A stretch of 64,000 nucleotides of DNA from Escherichia coli O127:H6 str. E2348/69 (GTDB lineage Bacteria; Pseudomonadota; Gammaproteobacteria; Enterobacterales; Enterobacteriaceae), in the NCBI RefSeq assembly GCF_000026545.1, contig NC_011601.1; one strand, 5' to 3'. Made by a program: the position numbers and the translations under genes. Position 1 is the stretch's first letter, and every line of letters starts with the position of its first letter. The notes beneath the pieces are model-generated. The model searched no databases. It saw only the letters and a list, made by a program, of their open reading frames with translations, and was not told the DNA's origin. Positions 14,941 to 29,588 of the stretch are shown in pieces.

Positions 14941-17763
14941 ATGACGGCAGAGTACATCAGGGACTGGCAACAACCGCGCCACGCAGTGGGGCGTGAAGGA
15001 ACGGGGATCCCCGCTCCTGAATCCGCGCTTTCCTCCTGGCTGGATGCCTACCGGGCAGAGAACGAGCACCGCCAGGAAATGGCTGATGCGGCGTTCTCCG
15101 CCACGCCGCTGGGCAACCTGATTAATAAAAGCCTGGACGCACAGGAAAAACAGGACAAAACCATCACACTGGCAGGAGACGCCAGAAAACAGGCACGCGG
15201 CGCGGTGGATGAAGCCATGGCCTCGCTGCGCCTGCTGCCGTCCTATCTGCGCGATCCGCTTATTCGCCACCTCTCCTTCCTGCGCAAAAAACAGGAAGCC
15301 GATCGTCAGAAAGGAAAAAACGCCAGGCAGGCAGAACGCTATGCGCGTGGGACCCTGCGCAAAATATTCGAACGTCTGGAGCGCACCGATCACCGCTGGC
15401 TGACACCGGGTTATCGCTCCCTTGCCGGACGCGAACGCCTGGACGATTTGCTTTACCTGCCGCAGCTCAACAAACACCAGATAAAGACGCTGGCAACCAT
15501 GACGGCGGCGATGTTCAGCAGCACCTTCGAAAAACTCTGCGATGGCTTTGGCGCGACCGATGGCGAGCTGACCATGGATGTAACCCTGAAGGCGTATCAG
15601 ATGCTGGCCCGCATGGCGTTACACCTGCACGCCATGCCTCCACATTATGACGCACTGACAACAGACAAAGACCGGAGGAACGAACCGGACACGGAGCTGC
15701 TGCCGGGCGCAATCCTTCGCCTGACCTGTGCGGAATGGTGGAAACGCAAACTGTGGCTGTTACGTTGCGAGTGGAGAGAAGAACAACTCCGCGCCGCCTG
15801 TCTGGTTTCCAGAAAAACATCGCCCTATCTGAGCCAGGACGCGTTAAGCGAGTTTCGCGCACAGCGCGAGAAAACACGCGATTTCCTGAAAAGTTTCATG
15901 CTGGAAAACGAAGACGGGTTCACGATTGATCTCGAGACAGTGTATTACGCGGGAGTAAGTAACCCGGTTCACCGTAAGGCAGAAATGATGGCCACCATGA
16001 AGGGACTGGAACTTCTGGCCGAAGCCCGTGGCGACAGAGCGGTGTTTCTGACTGTCACCTGCCCGTCAAAATACCACGCAACAACGGAGAACGGTCATCC
16101 GAACCCCAAATGGAACGGGGCCACCATGCGCGACTCCAGCGATTACCTGGTTAACACGTTTTTTGCGGCGGTCCGCAAAAAACTGAACCGCGACGGCCTG
16201 CGCTGGTATGGCATCCGCACGGTGGAGCCTCACCATGACGGCACCGTGCACTGGCATATGATGGTCTTTGCTCATCCGGAAGAAATCGACAGCATCGTGA
16301 CCATCACCCGCGATATTGCCATTCAGGAAGACCGCCACGAGCTGGGCAATGATATTACTCCGCGCTTTAAGGTGGAGTACGTCGACGGCACCAAAGGCAC
16401 GCCAACCAGCTACATCGCCACCTACATCGGAAAAAACCTGGACAGCCGCGCCGTGGATGGCATCGACCCGAAAACGGGCAAACCACGCGTTGACCACGAA
16501 ACCGGAAAATCAATGGCCGAGAGCGTGGAGCGCGCCATCGGTTGGGCACGCCTTCACCGGGTCCGCCAGTTCCAGTTCTTTGGCATCCCCTCCCGTCAGG
16601 TGTGGCGTGAACTCCGCCGCCTTGCCAGCCAGATGGCACGCAACCCGGAAGGCCCGCAACGGCTGAAGGATGACGCAATGGATGCGGTACTCGCTGCCGC
16701 TGATGCCGGATGTTTTGCCACCTACATAGAGAAACAGGGCGGTGTACTTGTTCCACGCAAAGACTACCTGATTCGCACCGCCTACGACCTCGCCGATGAG
16801 CTGAACGATTACGGCGAACAGAGTGTACAGATTTACGGGATCTGGTCACCACTCATCGGGGAATCCTCCCGTGTGTGCACGCACCCGGATAACTGGAAGC
16901 TGGTAAGACGTAAACCGGAACAGGAAGGCAGCGCCCACGAAAATGGTTTTGACCTTCAGGGCGGCCCTGCCGCCCCTTGGACTCGTGGCAATAACTGTCC
17001 CCGTGTACAGGAAACGGACAACAACGGGACAGAACAGCCGGAAGAACGGCCAGCACCGTGGCCGCAGCTCCCTGACGGCGTTGAAGTGAACGAATGGGTG
17101 CGCTCACTGAAACGGCACGAACGCCGGGCGCTGATGCGTTCGCTTCGTGACAAACAGGCAAAAAACAGCAGTGATGAAATGCAGAGCTGGACACAGAGCC
17201 GCAAACAGCAGCGGCCTTTGCCTGATAACCACGAATTACTCGCTAAAGAATGGCGGGAGTCTGCTGAATCTCTCGGCCTGCATATCGGTGAACAGCAGAT
17301 GCAGCACCTGTTACGGGGCGGCAGCCTGTACGTTGACGGCAGCATCATTGCACCGCAGGGATATGAAATTGTACGTAAACCGGATACCCGCCCGGACAGC
17401 CGAATCACGCAGCTCTGGCAACGCCTGAGCCGTAACCACGGCGTAAGCAGCACGGAGATCCGCCATAACCCGGTCGCCAGCTATCTGGAACAACTAGGGG
17501 CATCAGACCCTGAAGCCGCCGCACGCCTGGCATCCACACTTCAGCAAGACCAGAACACCATGAAAACACCCGTTACCGTACTTTCTGACATGCTGCGCGC
17601 CATCCGCGACGCAGAGCACGAACAGAGAATCAGTGAAACAACTGAACGCGCCCGCCGCAAAGCAGACCTGCTGCGGGGTGGCCTGACCAGTGGAAACAAA
17701 AAACAGACAAAAACGGGATTCACAAATCCCGTAAATGAGCAAAAAACGCGCCGCGATATATGA
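14941..17763 (+). CDS. A: replication initiation endonuclease, P2 gpA family (rolling-circle initiator)
   Basis: 940-aa ORF; HHDGTVHWHMMVF (HUH-type) and YIATYIGKN (catalytic Tyr) motifs; about 180 aa longer than P2 A. Confidence 0.85.
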   Translation: MTAEYIRDWQQPRHAVGREGTGIPAPESALSSWLDAYRAENEHRQEMADAAFSATPLGNLINKSLDAQEKQDKTITLAGDARKQARGAVDEAMASLRLLPSYLRDPLIRHLSFLRKKQEADRQKGKNARQAERYARGTLRKIFERLERTDHRWLTPGYRSLAGRERLDDLLYLPQLNKHQIKTLATMTAAMFSSTFEKLCDGFGATDGELTMDVTLKAYQMLARMALHLHAMPPHYDALTTDKDRRNEPDTELLPGAILRLTCAEWWKRKLWLLRCEWREEQLRAACLVSRKTSPYLSQDALSEFRAQREKTRDFLKSFMLENEDGFTIDLETVYYAGVSNPVHRKAEMMATMKGLELLAEARGDRAVFLTVTCPSKYHATTENGHPNPKWNGATMRDSSDYLVNTFFAAVRKKLNRDGLRWYGIRTVEPHHDGTVHWHMMVFAHPEEIDSIVTITRDIAIQEDRHELGNDITPRFKVEYVDGTKGTPTSYIATYIGKNLDSRAVDGIDPKTGKPRVDHETGKSMAESVERAIGWARLHRVRQFQFFGIPSRQVWRELRRLASQMARNPEGPQRLKDDAMDAVLAAADAGCFATYIEKQGGVLVPRKDYLIRTAYDLADELNDYGEQSVQIYGIWSPLIGESSRVCTHPDNWKLVRRKPEQEGSAHENGFDLQGGPAAPWTRGNNCPRVQETDNNGTEQPEERPAPWPQLPDGVEVNEWVRSLKRHERRALMRSLRDKQAKNSSDEMQSWTQSRKQQRPLPDNHELLAKEWRESAESLGLHIGEQQMQHLLRGGSLYVDGSIIAPQGYEIVRKPDTRPDSRITQLWQRLSRNHGVSSTEIRHNPVASYLEQLGASDPEAAARLASTLQQDQNTMKTPVTVLSDMLRAIRDAEHEQRISETTERARRKADLLRGGLTSGNKKQTKTGFTNPVNEQKTRRDI

Positions 17764-17839: not shown

Positions 17840-18799
17840 ATGAAAATTTGTATCGACGACGGCTCCACCAACATCAAGCTGGCATGGACTGAGAACGGCG
17901 AACACCGCAACGCCATCAGCCCGAACAGCTTCAAGTCGGAATGGTCTGCGCCGTTCGGTGGCACGCAGCCCGCGAACTACATGCTTGATGGCGTGCGCTA
18001 TGGTTTTGATCCGGTCAGCGATCGCTTTGTCCAGACGACCGACACGCAATACCAGTACAGCGATGTGAATGTCATTGCCATTCATCATGCGCTGGTCAAA
18101 TCAGGCATCACGCCACAGGAGGTGGATGTGGTTGTCACCCTGCCACTGAGCGAGTATTTCGACACAAACGCACAGCCGGACATGGCCAACATCAACCGCA
18201 AAAAAGCGAACGTTATGCGCCCGGTGGAGTACCAAAACGGCGAGGCATTCACTATCCGTAACGTGCGGGTTATGCCTGAATCCATTCCGGCTGGCTTTAA
18301 AGCACTGGCTGACATGAGTCCGTTTGAATCCCTGCTGATTGTGGATTTGGGCGGAACCACGCTGGATGTGGCAAAGGTTCAGGGGCAACTGGCAGGTATC
18401 AGCCAGGTGTTTTGCGATCCACACGTAGGCGTTTCTCTGATGGCCGATGCCGTGCTGTCGGTGATGGCCACCAACGGTATGCGCACCAGTCACCACATCG
18501 CCAATACCATTATCGAACATCGCCACGATGAAGCCTGGCTGCGCCAGCACATCCACAATGACGCGCATTACGCCAGCCTGATGGCAGTTATTCGTGAAAA
18601 GGAGGAAACACTGAAACAACGCGTGATCCGCGCGCTGGCGGTTTTTTCGGGTTACGGGCGGGTGATGGTTGTCGGTGGAGGGGCGGAGATTGTGGCACCC
18701 GCTATCCGCGAAGCCTGCGGAGTTAATGCGACTTTCATCGCGGACGGGGTGCCACAGTTTGCTCTGGTTAATGGGCTGTACGCAATGGACAAGGAGTAA
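17840..18799 (+). CDS. ParM/StbA-type actin-like segregation ATPase
   Basis: 319-aa ORF; N-terminus MKICIDDGSTNIKLAWTE and the segments YSDVNVIAIHHAL, VMPESIPAG, LLIVDLGGTTLD, VMVVGGGAE parallel plasmid R1 ParM (StbA) along the whole length. Confidence 0.8.
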   Translation: MKICIDDGSTNIKLAWTENGEHRNAISPNSFKSEWSAPFGGTQPANYMLDGVRYGFDPVSDRFVQTTDTQYQYSDVNVIAIHHALVKSGITPQEVDVVVTLPLSEYFDTNAQPDMANINRKKANVMRPVEYQNGEAFTIRNVRVMPESIPAGFKALADMSPFESLLIVDLGGTTLDVAKVQGQLAGISQVFCDPHVGVSLMADAVLSVMATNGMRTSHHIANTIIEHRHDEAWLRQHIHNDAHYASLMAVIREKEETLKQRVIRALAVFSGYGRVMVVGGGAEIVAPAIREACGVNATFIADGVPQFALVNGLYAMDKE

Positions 18800-18803
18800 A
18801 CCA

Positions 18804-19115
18804 ATGACGACTCCAACCAGACGGATAAGTTTCTATCTGAAGCCCACCGCCGTCAAGAACGAAGGAGAAGCATGCGCCTGGCTGGACAGCCTTACACCAG
18901 AAGCCCGCAAAAGCGGCCAACGCGTGGCTTTTCTGGCCGGGCTGGCACTTCTGAAAATGAATCCGGCAGAGGCTTACCGACTGGCTGCATGGGCTGATGA
19001 TGAGGTGTTATCAGTGACACAAACCAAGACAGAACGCCCCGCGTCACAGCCAGTATCAACCGCACAGATAACCAGTCAGATGGCCGGAAATATCCGGGCG
19101 TTATTTCCTGAATAA
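18804..19115 (+). CDS. ParR/StbB-like adaptor protein
   Basis: 103-aa product from MTTPTRRISFYLKP inside the listed 18669..19115 ORF; N-terminal region parallels R1 ParR (RRxIxFxLxP ... LDS ... AGLAL); follows the parM-like gene. Confidence 0.6.
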   Translation: MTTPTRRISFYLKPTAVKNEGEACAWLDSLTPEARKSGQRVAFLAGLALLKMNPAEAYRLAAWADDEVLSVTQTKTERPASQPVSTAQITSQMAGNIRALFPE

Positions 19116-19493: not shown

Positions 19494-20576
19494 ATGGTAA
19501 ACGTGAGGGAGGATGAACTTTTCAAACTCATCGAGCAAGGCATCAAAGGCAACGCAAATGCATTTACACTCCTATGCAGAAAGATGATTAACAACATCCG
19601 TAAAAATGATGAGGCTTTAGCTTCTAAGCTGGCTTCGTTAGTTGCTGAGGGAACAGTATTACGTGGGGCATCTAGTAAGGCTCCTATGCCTGTGGATGGA
19701 GACTCCAGACGAAACCTTTTGCAGGAAACATCTGTCAACGCAATTGTTGAAGAACCTGTATGGAATACGGATATCTCAAAGAAGCTGGAGTCAATTGTTA
19801 ACGAAAGAGAGAATGCGGTTTCTTTGTTCAAAGCTGGTCTTGAACCTGTGAAGACGGTTTTACTTTCTGGCCCGCCAGGCGTAGGCAAAACAATGTCCGC
19901 ACATTGGCTTGCTGCAAAGTTAAATTTACCTCTTTTAACATTGGATCTCTCATCTGTAATGAGTTCTCTTTTGGGAAAAACAGGTAATAATATTAAATCC
20001 GTTATGGATTATGCCAAAGAGAAACCATGTGTCCTTTTGCTTGATGAATTTGATGCTGTTGCAAAAAGACGTGATGATGACAGGGACGTTGGAGAATTAA
20101 AACGTTTAGTTACTGTACTCCTACAGACCATAGATGAGTGGCCAGCGACCTCGCTTCTTGTTGCTGCGACTAATCACCCTGATATCTTAGATCCGGCTGT
20201 TTGGCGTCGATTTGAGCACATCCTTAAATTTAATATGCCATCAGTAGAACTGATAGATAGATATTTAGTCAATCATAATATTGAACCTGAACTATCTAAA
20301 AAACTTGCACCATTATTAGATGGCATGTCCTTTGCCATCATTAACCGTATTTTGAATTTCTCCAAAAAGAATGAGGTACTTAGAAATATTCCATTTGAAA
20401 GCTCATTAATAGAAGCCGTAATTACGGAGAGGGTTTCATTGGATGAGTTTAGCGATAATGATCTCAATATAATTAAATATCATTTTGACGGTTTTTCAAA
20501 TAGGAAGATAGCTGAATTAGTTGGTGTTTCACATCCAACAATCGCGAATAAATTACAAAAGTGGGGGATTAAATGA
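19494..20576 (+). CDS. AAA+ ATPase with C-terminal HTH-like segment (candidate defence component A)
   Basis: 360-aa ORF; Walker A LLSGPPGVGKT, Walker B VLLLDEFDAV, sensor-1/Arg-finger ATNHPDILDPAVWRRF; C-terminal NRKIAELVGVSHPTIANKL; AT-rich codon usage. Confidence 0.8.
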   Translation: MVNVREDELFKLIEQGIKGNANAFTLLCRKMINNIRKNDEALASKLASLVAEGTVLRGASSKAPMPVDGDSRRNLLQETSVNAIVEEPVWNTDISKKLESIVNERENAVSLFKAGLEPVKTVLLSGPPGVGKTMSAHWLAAKLNLPLLTLDLSSVMSSLLGKTGNNIKSVMDYAKEKPCVLLLDEFDAVAKRRDDDRDVGELKRLVTVLLQTIDEWPATSLLVAATNHPDILDPAVWRRFEHILKFNMPSVELIDRYLVNHNIEPELSKKLAPLLDGMSFAIINRILNFSKKNEVLRNIPFESSLIEAVITERVSLDEFSDNDLNIIKYHFDGFSNRKIAELVGVSHPTIANKLQKWGIK

Positions 20577-22777
20577 TGGAAAGGAACTTACTTTTAGGTA
20601 ACGGTCATGTTCTGACAAAAAAGGAACCTTTGCCTAAAGGAAGGGATGGTAAGCGCTATCCCTATACTCTTGAAGAAGTAAGGGAGCATTTAAACCCAGA
20701 GATTGATACTTTACTCTCACGCTTTCGCAGTTTGGATGATGCGGCTAAGCCAAGGGGGGAGAGTGTATTCAATTTAACTTTACACCCAGCGTTTTTGGGT
20801 AAAAGCTACTTTCCGGAAGGATTGCTTAGAGCGACAGGTTTACGGGATGTCGGCAGCCGTCAGGTAATCATTCGCCCACGGAAAGCGGCACGTCAGTGCG
20901 ATCAGAATAAGGACTTAGTAACGGCGCAACTGTTTGTTAGCGGTGATGATGATGCCGTTATAAGATTTAAGGAAATTTTAAATTCCCCTACAGCTCCGAA
21001 GGGCGTACAAAAGGATTTGATCGAAATTGAAAGTGTTAGCTTTTTTGAAGGAAAAGAGAGAGCACGCAATTTTGAGCATGCGAAAAGTGATTTGATAAAA
21101 TTTGAAGTGGTTCTTCATGCTGGGGTTGAAGACGATGATATCGTTAAAGCCTATATTAGCTATGCGGCACAATATGATGTCTCTGTTGATTACAAAAGTA
21201 GAATCCAAGTTGGTGGGCTGACTTTCATCGTTGCACACGCGCGACCTGAAGATATGAAAAAAACACTCGATTTTTCATTAATCCGCGTTGTGCGGCCGAT
21301 GCCGTCTCTCAGGTGTACTCAGCCGAACATTGTCAGAAAGTTATCTAATATAGTTACACCGGAGCTCCCTAATTCTAAAGCTGTTCTTGAATCCGAACGT
21401 ATTGCCATTTTTGATGGTGGCTTGGGGACAGCTGACTTGAGTAATTGGGTTACGGAATACGTGTATCCAGACACCAAAGAAACAAGCGGATTATTATTGC
21501 AGCACGGTAATGAAGTGACATCCACTTTCTTATTCGGACGTGTCGAGGAAAATGCACCTTCTTTTAAAAGACCGTTTATGAATGTAGATCATTATAGAGT
21601 TCTTTCACCGACATCAGGTGACAATGGCAATTGGGATTTATTTGATGTCCTTAAGAAAATACAGTCCGTTCTTGATAGTGGTGACTATAAGTTCGCTAAT
21701 CTAAGTATTGGTCCTCATCTTCCAATTGGTGATGATGAGGTTCATGTATGGACTGCTGTTTTAGACCAAATCTGTGCTAAGCATGGGATATTACTTACTG
21801 TTGCTGTTGGGAATGATGGCAATGAGGACGGTGATGCAGCGAGAATACAACCTCCTTCCGATATGGTAAACGCGCTAGCGATTGGTGCTGCTGATCGTAG
21901 CGGTGAAAAATGGGGGCGGGCACCATATAGCTGTATTGGGCCAGGCAGAAGCCCCGGATTCGTTAAACCTGATGGTGTTATTTTTGGTGGAAGCGACGAC
22001 GAGCCTTTTTACACTTACAACCCTCTGCTTGGTTCTATAGTTGGAGTTCAAGGAACCAGTTATGCCTCTCCATTAGCATTGAGAACGGCCGCTGGAGTTG
22101 CGGCTCTATCAGGAACTCCATTGAACACCATTGCATTGAAAGCGTTGCTTGTTCATCATGCTGAAACATCAAGAAAATATTCGCGTGAACATATCGGTTG
22201 GGGACGGTTTAGTGAGGATCCTAACGTTTTAATCGATTGTCCAAATGATACTGCTACAGTAATTTACTATGGTTCATTAGCAAAAAATAAATATTTAAGG
22301 GCACCGATCCCATTCCCTGATGTTCCCTTTGACGAAGCATTTGAGCTTACCGCTACTTTATGCATTCAAACCCCAGTAGATCCTGAACATTCAGTAAACT
22401 ATACAAGGGCCGGTATGCAGGTAACTTTCCGCCCAAGATTCGGCCTTGACGATACCGATACAGATGATTTCTTTGGTCAAAAAAGCCAGTATAAGACTGA
22501 AAGGGAGTGTAGGAGTGAAGGTCATAAGTGGGAAACTTGTTTGCACAGAAGCAAAAAGTTCAGTGCTGATACATTATTAAGCGATCCAGTTTTTGATATA
22601 CGGTATCATGCCCGAGATTCTTCGCGCCATGTTAAGGGAGTTTCAGCCCCTGATATGCAATATGCGATGGTAATAAGCGTAAGGGTAAAAGACTTTGATT
22701 TATATAATGTTATTCGCCAGCGATATACAATTCTGAATCCTATTCAACTGCGCACACAAATTTCTCTCGACACGTAA
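20573..22777 (+). CDS. subtilisin-like S8 serine peptidase, large multidomain, no signal peptide (candidate defence component B)
   Basis: 734-aa ORF, ATGA-overlapped with the ATPase gene; S8 motifs in order: Asp IAIFDGGLG, His LLQHGNEV, Asn VAVGNDGNEDG, Ser GVQGTSYASPLAL; about 260-aa N-terminal and 200-aa C-terminal extra regions. Confidence 0.8.
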   Translation: MMERNLLLGNGHVLTKKEPLPKGRDGKRYPYTLEEVREHLNPEIDTLLSRFRSLDDAAKPRGESVFNLTLHPAFLGKSYFPEGLLRATGLRDVGSRQVIIRPRKAARQCDQNKDLVTAQLFVSGDDDAVIRFKEILNSPTAPKGVQKDLIEIESVSFFEGKERARNFEHAKSDLIKFEVVLHAGVEDDDIVKAYISYAAQYDVSVDYKSRIQVGGLTFIVAHARPEDMKKTLDFSLIRVVRPMPSLRCTQPNIVRKLSNIVTPELPNSKAVLESERIAIFDGGLGTADLSNWVTEYVYPDTKETSGLLLQHGNEVTSTFLFGRVEENAPSFKRPFMNVDHYRVLSPTSGDNGNWDLFDVLKKIQSVLDSGDYKFANLSIGPHLPIGDDEVHVWTAVLDQICAKHGILLTVAVGNDGNEDGDAARIQPPSDMVNALAIGAADRSGEKWGRAPYSCIGPGRSPGFVKPDGVIFGGSDDEPFYTYNPLLGSIVGVQGTSYASPLALRTAAGVAALSGTPLNTIALKALLVHHAETSRKYSREHIGWGRFSEDPNVLIDCPNDTATVIYYGSLAKNKYLRAPIPFPDVPFDEAFELTATLCIQTPVDPEHSVNYTRAGMQVTFRPRFGLDDTDTDDFFGQKSQYKTERECRSEGHKWETCLHRSKKFSADTLLSDPVFDIRYHARDSSRHVKGVSAPDMQYAMVISVRVKDFDLYNVIRQRYTILNPIQLRTQISLDT

Positions 22778-22782
22778 TTTTT

Positions 22783-22806
22783 ATGGCCGCGAAAGCGGCC
22801 TTTTTT
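22783..22806 (+). terminator. rho-independent terminator after the ATPase/S8 operon
   Basis: ggccgcgaaagcggcc stem followed by tttttt. Confidence 0.7.
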
Positions 22807-23281
22807 CTGTAATTTTTTTATGAATTTACATGCACGATAGTGCACAAATTTGCACAATTTTTTTGAACGAATTTTTGCCCTTCTGGCCCGCGTGGCGGCT
22901 GGATCCGTCAGGGATCCGTGCGTGCACAAAAAAACGCGCTTTTTCTGCGCGCAGGTGACGGGGGAACAGCCCGCGTTTCAGGGGGTAAATAGCATCCCCT
23001 GAACGATGTCGCAGCGACACAACAGAATGGCTGTATTTCTCACGCTGAGCGTGAAAAAGACGTGAGGGCTTTTGATTTGATGGGGTGACAGATAAGGCCG
23101 TCAAAATCGCACTGAGGCGGCGAGAACATGCAGTCAACGCGGTGGGATTGCGTAAGAGCCTGACCGTCGATGATGGCGATAAGCTGGAAGACGTCGTGAA
23201 ATTATCTGATTGATACAGGAGCTGGAGAGTCGGGGCATAAATTTTTTATGCCCCGACGAAGCAGCAGACAAGCGAAGCGCG

Positions 23282-24328
23282 TCAGGATGTGGGCTGGGTG
23301 TCTAACAGTGCGTAAGGGTTAAAGCGGATCACCTCTTCGCCAAGCCAGTCATTGATGTGCTTCATAGCCTCCATAACGGGCATCAGCTCGTTAATTGCAT
23401 AAACCCGCGCGGCCTTCTCCACATCACCAAACGCACTTTTTTCGCCCGGCATCGCCCCCATCAGTTGCGGCGGAACGCGGTGCGCAGCCAGTACATCATC
23501 ACGGGATGCCGCCTTAACATTCATGAACTCATCCTTTGCGGTGATCTGCTGGAACGGCAAAATTTGCACCCCCTCTTTGCCCCCGTTGGGCGCATGAATG
23601 AGCACGTTTTTAAATGCACCACCACCACGCGCACCCTGTAACGTTTCTTTCAGGGAGTCCATGCTTTCGCGGTTTACCTGCGCTGCACCGATGTAGATGA
23701 TGCACCCGGCGTGGGATCCGTTGTCGTAGTACAGTTTTCTGAACATGTCCGCCGAATGAGAAAGGCTGGCCGAGAGTAATGCGCCAAGATATTCCGGCAT
23801 GCCGTAGATTTCCTGGTTAATATCCGGATTCATCAGGTGGCATACTTTGCCAGGGCGAAACTGAAACGCGTCCTTACCATCCTGCACATACCACCATGAT
23901 TCAAGATCGCTTCCGCGTCGCATGTATTTCGCCAGGGCGTGCCGTAATTTAAGCGGTTCGCCGAGCATATTGCTTCGAAGCTCAAGGAATGCATTACCGA
24001 ACACAAACCAGTCCAGCGCCAGCGCCGAGAAATCCTGCCGGGAAAGCAGCGGGTGCGGGATGTAGCAACCGAGTAATACATTGCGCTTAAAGTAAAGCGC
24101 AGACTGATGCCAGGACGTTTGCCGGGCTGCTCTTGCCAGACCGTACCAGTCCACCGGGGTTTCATACCACCGCCCGTTATCAGCACAGTACATATTGTCC
24201 AGCAGGTCATGCCCGGTCAGGCGATAAGGACCATCAAATGTGAATGCACTGAGCGATGATTCTTTCCTGAGCGCATCAGCGAGATCAATGCGTGAACTCA
24301 TGCGCACTTTTTTGTTTTTTCTGCTCAT
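23282..24328 (-). CDS. Q: portal protein
   Basis: 348-aa ORF; P2 gpQ length and position; adjacent to and co-oriented with terminase. Confidence 0.85.
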   Translation of the reverse strand: MSRKNKKVRMSSRIDLADALRKESSLSAFTFDGPYRLTGHDLLDNMYCADNGRWYETPVDWYGLARAARQTSWHQSALYFKRNVLLGCYIPHPLLSRQDFSALALDWFVFGNAFLELRSNMLGEPLKLRHALAKYMRRGSDLESWWYVQDGKDAFQFRPGKVCHLMNPDINQEIYGMPEYLGALLSASLSHSADMFRKLYYDNGSHAGCIIYIGAAQVNRESMDSLKETLQGARGGGAFKNVLIHAPNGGKEGVQILPFQQITAKDEFMNVKAASRDDVLAAHRVPPQLMGAMPGEKSAFGDVEKAARVYAINELMPVMEAMKHINDWLGEEVIRFNPYALLDTQPTS

Positions 24329-26079
24329 CAGAACTCCATAACCGTGAAACGCTCGTTTTCTCCTTCGCCGCCAATCGGTTCGTTAATGACAGCAAGCATG
24401 GTTGCCCACGCAAGGTCGCCGTGGCTGATCCCCCTCGCGCGGTCCGTTTCGTAAGTGATAAAGCCGCCCGGTGTTTTCACCTTACGCACGGCGTTAAAGG
24501 CCGCGACCAGCTCGCGTTCGGCGCGATCGTATTCCCACCGCCCGGCACGCATTATGTGCAGCATTTTCAGTACCAGCGACCGTTTTGATGACAGCGTGAA
24601 GGTGTACGGAATAGCAGCAGGGAAAAACCGTTTCACTATCTGATAAACAGCCTCCCCGTTCCCGCCCGTCACATCAATGCCGATGTGTTCCACGTTGTAG
24701 CGATACGTGAACTCTTCAATGACTCTGGCCTGTTCTTCAAACTCCAGCCCTTGAACGCGTCGCGTCTCCACCGTTCGAAAACGGCCACCAGGAACAGCCG
24801 GAGGAACCACCACGGACACAGCGCCGCTGTCGCCGTTGCCACTACTGCCGTTTGCGTCATACCCAATCCATACCGGACGATTCCCCATCGGGCGGGGAGC
24901 AAAAGGTTTCCAGTCTTTCCAGTCGTCGTATCCGTCAACACCGCAGCCAATCAGGATATTCAGGTTAAATGCCGATTCCCCTTCGCGGACAAACTCACAC
25001 ATATAGAGATTGAGGAACTCGTCTTCGGTGTTTTCATCACGAATTTCGTCGATATCAGTGTGTTTCCAGCCGTGATTAACCACATCTTCCAGCGTGACAA
25101 TTTGCCGCCACGTCCGGTCAGGGCAGATAAGCCCGTTATGCAGCGTTTTCCAGTCCACAGAAAAACGCTGGCGTTTATGCGAGGCCTTTTTCTCATTCCA
25201 GCGGTCGCCGTTCCAGTAGGCGTATGCCTCGTGCGTTTCGGTGGATGGCGTGGAGAAGTAGGTGCGCCGCAGTCCGCTGAGGGTTGCCATAGCGCCAGCC
25301 ACCTTGCGCAGTTCAGCAAAGCGACTGACCCAGAAAAATTCATCAAAATAAAAATTGCCCGTATAGGACTGTGCCGACGCAGCAGAAGTGCCGAGAAAAT
25401 GCAGCTCTGCGCCGTTGGAGAGGATGATTTTATCGCCCCCTTTCAGCTCCACATCAACTTCAGCCGCGGCCTTCTGAATAATGCTTTTAAACTGGAACGC
25501 CTGACGACGCGACGCAGACAAAAAAATCTGGTTACGCTGGTAAGGTTGCGCCACATCGTCACGCAGCGCCATCAGCAGTGCTTCCTGTGCAAAATACCAG
25601 GTCGCCCCAATCTGTCGGGATTTCAGGATCATCCTGTTACGTATCCCGGCTTCCCTGCAAAGGGTCAGGGAGTCAAACCAGCCCCGCTGATGCCACTCCA
25701 GCCTGCTGATGATTTTTTCCCGCAGTGCGGCAATCTGTTCCGGCGTGAAATGATTTTTGAGTTTTTTCGCCCGGCCTTTCTTTCCTGCGGCCGTCGCATC
25801 CGGCTGGCCATCATGCAGCTTTTTAAGCTGCCGGGTCAGCAGGTCTATTTCCTTAAAGTCACCGCCTGTTTTATTCTGTTTTTCAGTAAGCTGGATGAGA
25901 CGCGCATCGATGGACTGCGTGACACGCTGCACGGGTGGCGTTTCATCCCACTGGTCACGTTTTTTCCACGCATAAATCGTGTTCGGGTTTATTCCCATCA
26001 GACGTGATATTTCTGCGGGCGGATAACCCTGCCAGTAAAGTTGCCGCGCACGCTGGCGCACAAAAGCGTCCTGAATCAT
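24328..26079 (-). CDS. P: terminase large (ATPase) subunit
   Basis: 583-aa ORF; P2 gpP length and position; overlaps the Q start. Confidence 0.88.
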   Translation of the reverse strand: MIQDAFVRQRARQLYWQGYPPAEISRLMGINPNTIYAWKKRDQWDETPPVQRVTQSIDARLIQLTEKQNKTGGDFKEIDLLTRQLKKLHDGQPDATAAGKKGRAKKLKNHFTPEQIAALREKIISRLEWHQRGWFDSLTLCREAGIRNRMILKSRQIGATWYFAQEALLMALRDDVAQPYQRNQIFLSASRRQAFQFKSIIQKAAAEVDVELKGGDKIILSNGAELHFLGTSAASAQSYTGNFYFDEFFWVSRFAELRKVAGAMATLSGLRRTYFSTPSTETHEAYAYWNGDRWNEKKASHKRQRFSVDWKTLHNGLICPDRTWRQIVTLEDVVNHGWKHTDIDEIRDENTEDEFLNLYMCEFVREGESAFNLNILIGCGVDGYDDWKDWKPFAPRPMGNRPVWIGYDANGSSGNGDSGAVSVVVPPAVPGGRFRTVETRRVQGLEFEEQARVIEEFTYRYNVEHIGIDVTGGNGEAVYQIVKRFFPAAIPYTFTLSSKRSLVLKMLHIMRAGRWEYDRAERELVAAFNAVRKVKTPGGFITYETDRARGISHGDLAWATMLAVINEPIGGEGENERFTVMEF

Positions 26080-28191: not shown

Positions 28192-28992
28192 ATGATTACT
28201 CCTGCACAGCAACACTGGCAGAACGTGATGGCACAGCGCGCAGGCCGGGCGAATGAAGGCGTGGACCACGCCGCGCGTACCGCGCATGAAGAGGTGCTGT
28301 ATCGTCTGCGTCTGGCACAGGCCCGGCTTAAGGGCGTACAGGCCAGAAGCGCGAAAGCCGCCATCAAAAAAGAGTTGTTGCCGGATTTTTCCGGCTGGAT
28401 TGAGGGAACGCTGGAGGCTGACGGCGGGCAGCAGGATGAAGTGATTGCCACGCTGATGGTGTGGGCGATTGACTGTGGCGATCTTCCGCTGGCGTTGCGT
28501 ATTGGTGCGTATGTGGTCCGTCACAACCTCATCATGCCGGATAACTTTGGCCGTACTGCTGCCACGGTACTGACCGAAGAAATCTGTAATCCGGTACTGA
28601 CGCAGGCCGGGACGGATGCCGACGCGGATTTGTCCGCCTTTATCGAACCACTGGACACCCTCCGGGAGATTGTCACCGACCAGGACATGCCGGACGAAGT
28701 GCGCGCCAAATTATGCAAAGCGTGCGCCTTTGCCCGCCGTGGCCTGAGTGATGCGGACAGCATGGCCCTGTCACTGAAGCTGCTGCGCGAAGCAATGCAC
28801 CTGAACCCGAACGCAGGTGTGAAACGCGAGATTGCAACCCTTTCCCGCGCCCTGAAAAAAGCCGATTCCGCAGCCGCACCAGAAGATGCCAGCACACCGC
28901 AGGCGCAGGACGAAAGCAGCAAAAGTAAAAAGACAACGCGGAAGCCTGCAACACGAAAAACCACCGCGACGCAGAAGGCGAAGCGCGGTTAA
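28192..28992 (+). CDS. M: terminase small/endonuclease subunit
   Basis: 266-aa ORF at the P2 gpM position; basic Lys/Arg-rich C-terminal tail. Confidence 0.7.
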   Translation: MITPAQQHWQNVMAQRAGRANEGVDHAARTAHEEVLYRLRLAQARLKGVQARSAKAAIKKELLPDFSGWIEGTLEADGGQQDEVIATLMVWAIDCGDLPLALRIGAYVVRHNLIMPDNFGRTAATVLTEEICNPVLTQAGTDADADLSAFIEPLDTLREIVTDQDMPDEVRAKLCKACAFARRGLSDADSMALSLKLLREAMHLNPNAGVKREIATLSRALKKADSAAAPEDASTPQAQDESSKSKKTTRKPATRKTTATQKAKRG

Positions 28993-29084: not shown

Positions 29085-29588
29085 GTGAACCCCATGAGTA
29101 TGGTTGCCAGAACCAACCCCGGACCCGCAGAGGACGACATCACCGATACCGATGATGGCGATACCCGCATTTCAGCGGGTGCATTCTGGCCGGATATTGT
29201 GCTGCGCGAGCTGCGTCTGGCGGTACGACTGCCGGGGCGCGTGACCACCTCCCGCCTGCTGCATACTGCCACCGGGGCTGTGGCACACGTTACCCGCGAG
29301 CTGGAAGCATGGCAGCAGGAACAGCAGGCAGCTGGCCATCAGACGCTGGCCGATGTTCCGGCACCCGTAATTAACGGAGAAAGCGTCAATCTCTGGCACT
29401 GGCGCAATGCTGTTTATACCGCCACGCGCGCCCTGATTCTGGAGCGTTATCGTGATGCAGACACTACGGACAAGGGCGACCGCCGGGCGGACGCTCTGGA
29501 TATACAGACATCGGATTTGTGGCGTGATGTGAGCTGGGCCATCTCTGACATTCTGTGCCGCCCGCGAATCTTTGCGGAGTTGTGCTGA
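29085..29588 (+). CDS. L: head completion/stabilisation protein
   Basis: 167-aa ORF; parallels P2 gpL (LADVPA ... GES ... LWRDVSWAI ... CRP). Confidence 0.8.
   Translation: MNPMSMVARTNPGPAEDDITDTDDGDTRISAGAFWPDIVLRELRLAVRLPGRVTTSRLLHTATGAVAHVTRELEAWQQEQQAAGHQTLADVPAPVINGESVNLWHWRNAVYTATRALILERYRDADTTDKGDRRADALDIQTSDLWRDVSWAISDILCRPRIFAELC

Follow-up and report, generated by a model that had tools for sequence, protein, structure and literature searches.

Bacteriophage P2 is a cos phage, and the core of its cos site is common to P4 (PMC9122126, PMC7617512). This P2/P4 core is 55 bp long, as cited from Ziermann and Calendar (1990) in two later papers (PMC5694545; PMC9122126). The cohesive ends of P2 and 186 are 5′ extensions of 19 nt, GGCGAGGCGGGGAAAGCAC and GGCGTGGCGGGGAAAGCAT, respectively. 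Numbering of the P2 genome starts at the left cohesive end (base 1); the terminator tQ follows at 160-181 and Q ends at 187, and the accessory genes old and tin are found at the opposite end of the linear molecule. The layout of 186 is like that of P2, with other accessory genes. In the P2-like Ralstonia phage phiRSA1, the mapped cos ends are 5′-GGTGAGGCGGGGTCCAAC (PMC5694545). A looser analogy is offered by the cosQ-cosN-cosB arrangement of lambda, in which phased repeats on one side of the nicking site position the terminase; lambda cos has no sequence relationship to the site described here, its overhang is 12 nt long, and its terminase belongs to different families.

We analyzed a 64,000-nucleotide stretch of the genome of Escherichia coli O127:H6 str. 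E2348/69 (hereafter the window), and a gap in it between a defence operon and a phage portal gene (22778-23281, 504 bp). The gap very probably holds the cos packaging site of a P88-like, P2-family prophage; the closest phage relatives of the gap sequence place the prophage in the genus Xuanwuvirus of the Peduoviridae (the P2 family). Over 701 bases around the gap, the sequence matches the E2348/69 chromosome at 100% identity. The assignment to the P2-family cos draws on position, on the packaging machinery encoded nearby, on motif architecture and on transitive homology, and the cleavage itself is a prediction. The genes around the gap are the following:

14941-17763, replication gene A.
17840-18799, ParM (319 aa).
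19494-20576, IetA, an AAA ATPase of 360 aa (PADLOC, E = 3.6e-89).
20573-22777, plus strand, IetS, an S8 peptidase/protease of 734 aa (PADLOC, E = 6.6e-41).
23282-24328, minus strand, portal protein Q (Pfam Phage_portal).
24328-26079, minus strand, large terminase P (Pfam Terminase_5/6N/6C).
28192-28992, plus strand, small terminase M (Pfam Phage_term_smal).

A scaffold and a capsid gene come between P and M. The gene order around the gap is that of P2 around its cos: as in P2 and 186, the site is downstream of the portal gene and beside a hotspot of accessory or defence genes, and the cognate P2-type portal and both terminase subunits are encoded nearby. Since these head and packaging proteins share only 36-47% identity with their P2 counterparts (47% for Q, 44% for P and 36% for M), the prophage is a distant relative of P2. 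The cargo to the left of cos is IetA and IetS, a known two-gene defence system; a cos-proximal defence hotspot of P2-like phages was reportedly described by Rousset and colleagues in 2022, and IetAS is said to sit there. The Enterobacter phage phiT5282H has an S8 family peptidase at the place that matches IetS. Between replication gene A and the hotspot there are, separately, ParM and a Plasmid_stab_B-type gene (17840-19115), which are partition genes within an integrated P2-like prophage and are kept in P88-like phages.

The gap extends exactly from the stop codon of IetS to that of Q, and the RefSeq record has no annotated feature within it, confirming the non-coding interval between the defence operon and Q that had been proposed in an earlier note on this DNA; its placement of the interval at the P2 cos position was likewise borne out by the gene order, downstream of Q and beside the accessory-gene hotspot. 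Small open reading frames of 42-103 aa occur in the gap, and two of them are listed as hypothetical proteins in the annotation of phage P88. No Pfam family matches those at 23085-23213 (plus strand), 23134-23271 (minus strand) and 22850-23002 (plus strand), and no codon-position bias is seen at their variable sites among 87 distinct P88-like sequences (for example, 21/19/17 over the three positions in the 42-aa frame, which is broken in 12 of the 87 relatives). As far as can be told, the gap is non-coding. A promoter scan of 22400-23600 returned no sigma-70-like site, and the search against Rfam returned sub-threshold matches alone (Histone3, gyrA, and RefA1). The match to the histone 3′ UTR stem-loop (22760-22805, minus strand; 32 bits, below the gathering score of 34 bits) was rejected, as it is the hairpin of the terminator behind IetS:

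22785-22806, plus strand, intrinsic terminator that ends the IetA-IetS operon, with the hairpin GGCCGC-GAAA-GCGGCC and then a TTTTTT tract (terminator scan).

This terminator (-13.7 kcal/mol, z = -3.3) is part of the cargo and outside cos. In P88-like phages with other cargo, the shared sequence starts only at about 22826-22831, that is, at the first of the TGCAC motifs described below, which is 53 bp from the end of IetAS.

We compared the gap with known cos sites both directly and by profile. A Smith-Waterman alignment of the 55-bp P2 core with the gap scored 16 at best, a value no better than that of shuffled sequences (mean 15.5), though it was located at 22947-22970. An nhmmer profile built from 61 distinct cos regions of the P2/186/P4 types had its best match in the 64-kb window at 29402-29461 (E = 0.19), within a coding gene, and we took this match as chance. 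The same profile matches 22 cos regions of Klebsiella/Enterobacter-type P2-like phages (E values of 1e-5 to 7e-4, in 1.7 Mb searched), in alignments that span the TGCAY cluster and continue into the 19-mer, setting gcgggcg|ggcgagg in register with GCGCGCA|GGTGACG. When these 22 matches were added to the P2/186/P4 regions, the second-round profile matched the window at 22830-22975 with E = 3.8e-19, the sole match below E = 0.8 in the 64 kb. By these comparisons, homology of the site to the P2/186/P4 cos is supported through intermediates, not directly. The check suggested in the earlier note, a plain alignment with P2 and 186 cos sequences, thus fails when used alone, giving a shuffle-level score and a profile E above 0.1; the intermediates are needed.

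The features of the predicted site are listed here, with offsets counted from the predicted left nick (22954):

22830-22976, plus strand, predicted functional cos region (about -125 to +22), putatively homologous to the P2/186/P4 cos.
22831-22855, plus strand, distal TGCAC cluster, cosB-like, three motifs one helical turn apart.
22901-22919, plus strand, direct repeat of GGATCCGT, with copies at 22901-22908 and 22912-22919 (11-nt spacing).
22923-22953, plus strand, proximal TGCAC, A run, GC inverted repeat (22934-22952) and GCGCGCA, equivalent to the left portion of the 55-bp P2/P4 core TGCATTAAAACCGCCCCGTGAAGCGGGCG.
22954-22972, plus strand, predicted cohesive end (cosN equivalent), 5′-GGTGACGGGGGAACAGCCC-3′, from sequence comparison.

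These elements follow the same order as in P2 and 186: three phased TGCAY motifs, about 70 bp of other sequence, a TGCAY with an A run, a GC-rich block, and a G-rich 19-mer that starts with GGYGA. This phased-TGCAY architecture (motifs about 100-125 bp and about 30 bp to the left of the nick) is our own reading of P2, 186, and P4, and not a published definition. TGCAC occurs at 22831, 22841, and 22851 (10-nt spacing) and again at 22923, so the repeated tgcaca motifs that the earlier note had pointed out at 22840-22860 are real. Four TGCAY within 150 nt compare with 0.31 expected, and this number is reached in 72 of 63,851 150-nt windows, about 58 of which are the cos cluster itself. The offsets of the four motifs (-123, -113, -103, and -31) are close to those of TGCAT in P2 (-123, -111, -101, and -29) and in P4 and 186 (-124, -111, -101, and -29), and the architecture of P4 agrees with that of the window within ±2 nt. 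Among 123 distinct cos regions of the P88 type, the TGCAY motifs are found at the conserved offsets in 98-114 (the distal three in 98-112). By analogy, we infer that the distal cluster is a terminase recognition (cosB-like) element.

The site also differs from those of P2 and 186. It has TGCAC where they have TGCAT, a change that accompanies a small terminase only 36% identical to P2 gpM; its 19-mer matches that of P2 at just 13 of 19 positions without gaps; its GC-rich block ends in GCGCGCA, and that of P2 in GCGGGCG; and cos is 309 bp away from the Q stop, as against 167 bp. The middle block is a GGATCC/GATC repeat here, whereas P2 has AT-rich DNA and 186 has GGCGCGGCTCCAGAG at this place. 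The short direct repeat that had been noticed earlier is present, as GGATCCGT at 22901 and 22912; a single 8-mer repeat could be chance, yet the block varies by just 0.2-1.4% among the 87 distinct P88-like sequences. It occupies the position of a block, GGCGCGGTCTGAG, that P4 shares at about -55 with the Klebsiella/Enterobacter-type relatives of the window cos. The repeat contains two GATC (Dam) sites, at 22902-22905 and 22913-22916 (-52 and -41 from the predicted nick); GATC is found at -41 in 107 and at -52 in 72 of the 123 distinct P88-type cos regions, whereas P2, 186, and P4 are without GATC in the corresponding stretch from -60 to -35.

The sequence next to the predicted nick is extremely constant: 22940-22953 is invariant among the 87 P88-like sequences, and GCGCGCAGGTGACGGGGG is the core of the P88 cos type. 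The inverted repeat at 22934-22952 scores as terminator-like on the minus strand in the terminator scan; its folding is no better than that of shuffled sequences (z = -0.66), and the structure is not kept across lineages. To the left of the nick, a 6-bp inverted repeat is present in P2 and P4; since the repeats here are short and differ between sub-lineages, we claim no conserved hairpin at this place.

The earlier note had proposed a cos region and had failed to locate the cohesive end by eye. The first part stands, given the profile match at 22830-22975, and for the second we can offer a candidate: the most likely cohesive-end sequence, judged by comparison with relatives, is GGTGACGGGGGAACAGCCC at 22954-22972. 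It is unique within the 64-kb window and fits the form GGYGNSG..GGGG of the 19-nt cohesive ends in the P2 family. Its identity with the P2 cohesive end is 13/19 without gaps and 15/20 with gaps; the 19-mer of a more distant prophage (L017, E. coli AMSCJX04), GGTGACGGGGGGAAAGCCC, matches P2 at 15 of 19 and the window at 17 of 19 positions, bridging both. The mapped phiRSA1 cos, which begins GGTGAGGCGGGG, is like the window in having GGTGA and then a G run (PMC5694545). Further likenesses are that the phiRSA1 cos is upstream of a Q homologue and that extra DNA separates cosL from Q; the differences are that its host belongs to another branch of the phylum and that the 3′ half of its overhang is another sequence, the comparison being one with the printed end, unaligned. 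The predicted nicks would fall before 22954 on the top strand and after 22972 on the bottom strand, within ±2 nt, and a 19-nt overhang of 5′ polarity is presumed, carried over from P2 and 186. Both predicted nicks are 5′ of a G that follows GC(A/C), and in P2 the top strand is nicked at GCG^GGCG and the bottom strand at GCA^GTGC. Mapped virion ends for the P88-like group were not found in searchable records or papers, and the searchable literature returned no report of a P88 or Xuanwuvirus cos, or of GGTGACGGGGGAACAGCCC as a phage end. Two other sources of termini were considered and rejected: the locus ends in IMG/VR are storage-chunk boundaries and not contig ends, and the assemblies whose contigs match the portal protein are bacterial chromosomes.

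It is improbable, though conceivable, that the cos assignment is right and that the nicks are placed elsewhere (for example, at 22952) or the overhang has a length other than 19 nt. In the second-round profile alignment, the register is moved by 2 nt and the P2 nick falls farther left, at 22952, from where three of the four TGCAC offsets become identical to those of P2 (-111, -101, and -29; the fourth is -121, as against -123). Overhang lengths also differ within the P2 family, being 7 nt in HP1 and 21 nt in phiCTX. We give the nick as 22954 ± 2 because of this register shift and because relatives differ by 2 nt in how far the proximal TGCAC is from the 19-mer. We prefer 22954 because the first-round alignments and the ungapped match of the AMSCJX04 19-mer to P2 put the nick before GGTGACG, and because the context, 5′ of a G after GC(A/C), is then that of P2; moreover, one relative (L076) has the P2-like spacing and yet the same GCGCGCA|GGTGACG junction.

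Conservation around the predicted cohesive end also favors this placement. In the 87 distinct P88-like sequences, 22940-22979 shows essentially no variation, and neighboring 10-nt bins vary by 2-12%. In a set from IMG/VR that was anchored about 100 bp upstream, on the TGCAC cluster, so that the 19-mer was free to vary (108 distinct sequences), the 19-mer pattern is kept in 106, and the two exceptions are off at one position each; these counts overstate the independent support, because the sequences are related by descent. Phages with a portal protein just 68-78% identical retain GCGCGCA and the 19-mer, and the DNA on both sides cannot be aligned. The similarity of phiT5282H-type phages to the window stops at about 22975, roughly 3 nt past the 19-mer, and the left edge of the cos profile match is where conservation starts among phages with different cargo. 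Together, these conservation edges delimit what appears to be a functional unit of some 150 bp.

Two phage records depart from this pattern. P88_4B11 (LR595891), sequenced from virion DNA in the supernatant of a strain (PMC6969025), has a 5-bp deletion and a substitution (at about 85-100 of the record), and the environmental isolate Chuche (PP925824), presumably also sequenced from virions, has a 7-bp deletion (at about 1640-1660 of the record). These are the sole indels of the region in the two records, and they fall within the 19-mer or at its edge; no indel in the 19-mer was found among the 108 distinct IMG/VR sequences. Since the 19-mer is otherwise invariant, the deletions are probably assembly errors at the physical ends of the DNA, and real ends with poor coverage would give such a pattern. 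The argument from indels rests on two cases, because P88, Shae_phiSM, and 569R5, which are likely assemblies of phage DNA, have an intact 19-mer.

A cut at the G-rich stretch farther upstream (about 22889-22907, GCCCGCGTGGCGGCTGGATCC) is very improbable, and we rule it out as a candidate. That stretch includes the 9-mer GCGTGGCGG, which also forms the core of the 186 cohesive end, and the LR595891 record begins 13 nt upstream of it, at window position 22876. Nucleotide 1 of that record, however, was chosen “relative to reference genomes” and was not mapped (PMC6969025), which removes it as a physical end. The stretch is also variable (P88 has GCGTGACAGT there, and 22890-22899 varies by 7.4%), and in the profile alignments it pairs with the P4 block from -65 to -50, CCCGGCGCGGTCTGAG, and not with the P4 cut site.

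The right part of the gap, 22977-23281 (about 300 bp), is P88-like-specific non-coding DNA outside the conserved cos core, with no coding signature and no Rfam match. It contains three hairpins (22977-23003, 23033-23061, and 23229-23257), of which two call for description:

22977-23003, no strand assigned, inverted repeat TTCAGGGG-N11-CCCCTGAA, directly right of the 19-mer and lineage-specific.
23229-23257, no strand assigned, perfect 13-bp hairpin, with arms at 23229-23241 and 23245-23257 and a 3-nt loop.

The first (-13.9 kcal/mol, z = -2.2) is absent from phiT5282H-type phages. The second is the more stable (-22.6 kcal/mol on the minus strand, z = -7.6) and is located downstream of Q, 25 nt from its stop, in the position that the terminator tQ occupies in P2. 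Neither strand has a T run after its stem, the terminator scan returned no hit for it, and a rho-independent terminator was rejected for this strong stem without a U tract. The earlier note had described a hairpin with an A/T-rich loop at 23234-23260, within the cos/packaging region; the hairpin exists, the A/T stretch taken as its loop is mostly stem, and the structure adjoins Q, outside cos. Beside it, the 32 bp from the hairpin to the Q stop (23250-23281) are invariant in the 87 P88-like sequences, and the last Q codons vary by 9-14%. In phages of the ON470599 type (L013, 1960-2596), a 635-bp insertion separates this hairpin from Q (window 23285/23307) and takes the place of the last Q codons; the insertion has a 174-aa open reading frame and a bidirectional terminator of its own, and it makes the Q stop a second variable spot.

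That the gap is a mere transcriptional spacer (convergent terminators and leftover DNA), with packaging elsewhere or the prophage defective, is scarcely credible: the three terminator-like hairpins and the weak profile match at 29402-29461 would suit it, but that match is non-significant and inside a coding gene, and terminators leave unexplained both an invariant 40-bp block common to other genera with different flanks and a motif architecture that matches P2, 186, and P4. The window cos has exactly the commonest 19-mer and GCGCGCA junction among its relatives, and therefore shows no sign of decay.

With the gap read as the cos site of the P88-like prophage, packaging could proceed as follows. 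After induction and replication, the terminase (gpM and gpP) would recognize the region of about 150 bp at 22830-22976, probably through the four TGCAC motifs, three of them phased at 100-125 bp to the left of the cut and one 31 bp away; by analogy, these motifs would be the terminase binding sites, and the GGATCC/GATC block between them may contribute to recognition. gpP would then make two staggered nicks around GGTGACGGGGGAACAGCCC, leaving single-stranded 5′ ends of 19 nt, and the DNA would be fed through the Q portal, by analogy with P2. The virion DNA would start at about 22954, run rightward into Q, P, O, N, M and beyond, and terminate near 22972, past the IetAS cargo. From these predicted ends, the linear genome would have the cargo hotspot on its far right, beside cos.

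We also asked how P4-like satellites compare, using P4-like loci anchored on psu (L183-L262), in which cos is found 160-172 bp downstream of psu and is recognizable in 79 of the 80 listed. Among the matches listed, none of these 79 has a 19-mer of the GGTGAC type: all 79 are of the GGCG type, in eight variants, with GGCGTGGCGGGGAGAGCAT in 21 loci. Since the P88-type variant occurs in none of the 79, the satellites were rejected as an independent witness for the window cos. In the satellites, conservation stops and variable cargo starts about 7 bp to the right of the 19-mer, whereas here the TGCAC cluster has the cargo on its left side. Of 5426 complete E. coli genomes, 1139 (about 21%) contain the cos core, and places with the cos core (1314) are not in excess of Q-proximal places (1340).

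The version of the site with GGTGACGGGGGAACAGCCC and TGCAC repeats is new to the searchable literature; the cos site itself is an ordinary and expected feature of such a phage. Knowing the cos core and its likely ends would allow the genome records of P88-like phages to be oriented consistently, and physical ends at the 19-mer would account for the small deletions in LR595891 and PP925824. The limits of cos also fix the boundary of the cos-proximal defence hotspot, and the 150-bp fragment is offered for cosmid-type transduction with P88-like phages. Even more tentatively than the separate specificity class suggested below, the GATC sites at -41 and -52 may make recognition sensitive to Dam methylation, by analogy with the pac site of P1, whose recognition is sensitive to it. 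Our understanding of P2-type packaging is unchanged by this site, and the sole biological question it raises is whether P4-like satellites are shut out by this cos variant. The satellite data and the counts in E. coli genomes, which are negative evidence from the matches listed, are compatible with a packaging specificity that these satellites do not exploit, and we suggest, as a tentative and rather doubtful possibility, that the P88-type cos forms a separate packaging-specificity class within the P2 family, one that P4-like satellites have not captured; if this is true, the divergence of cos would insulate the very common P88-like prophages from P4-type piracy.
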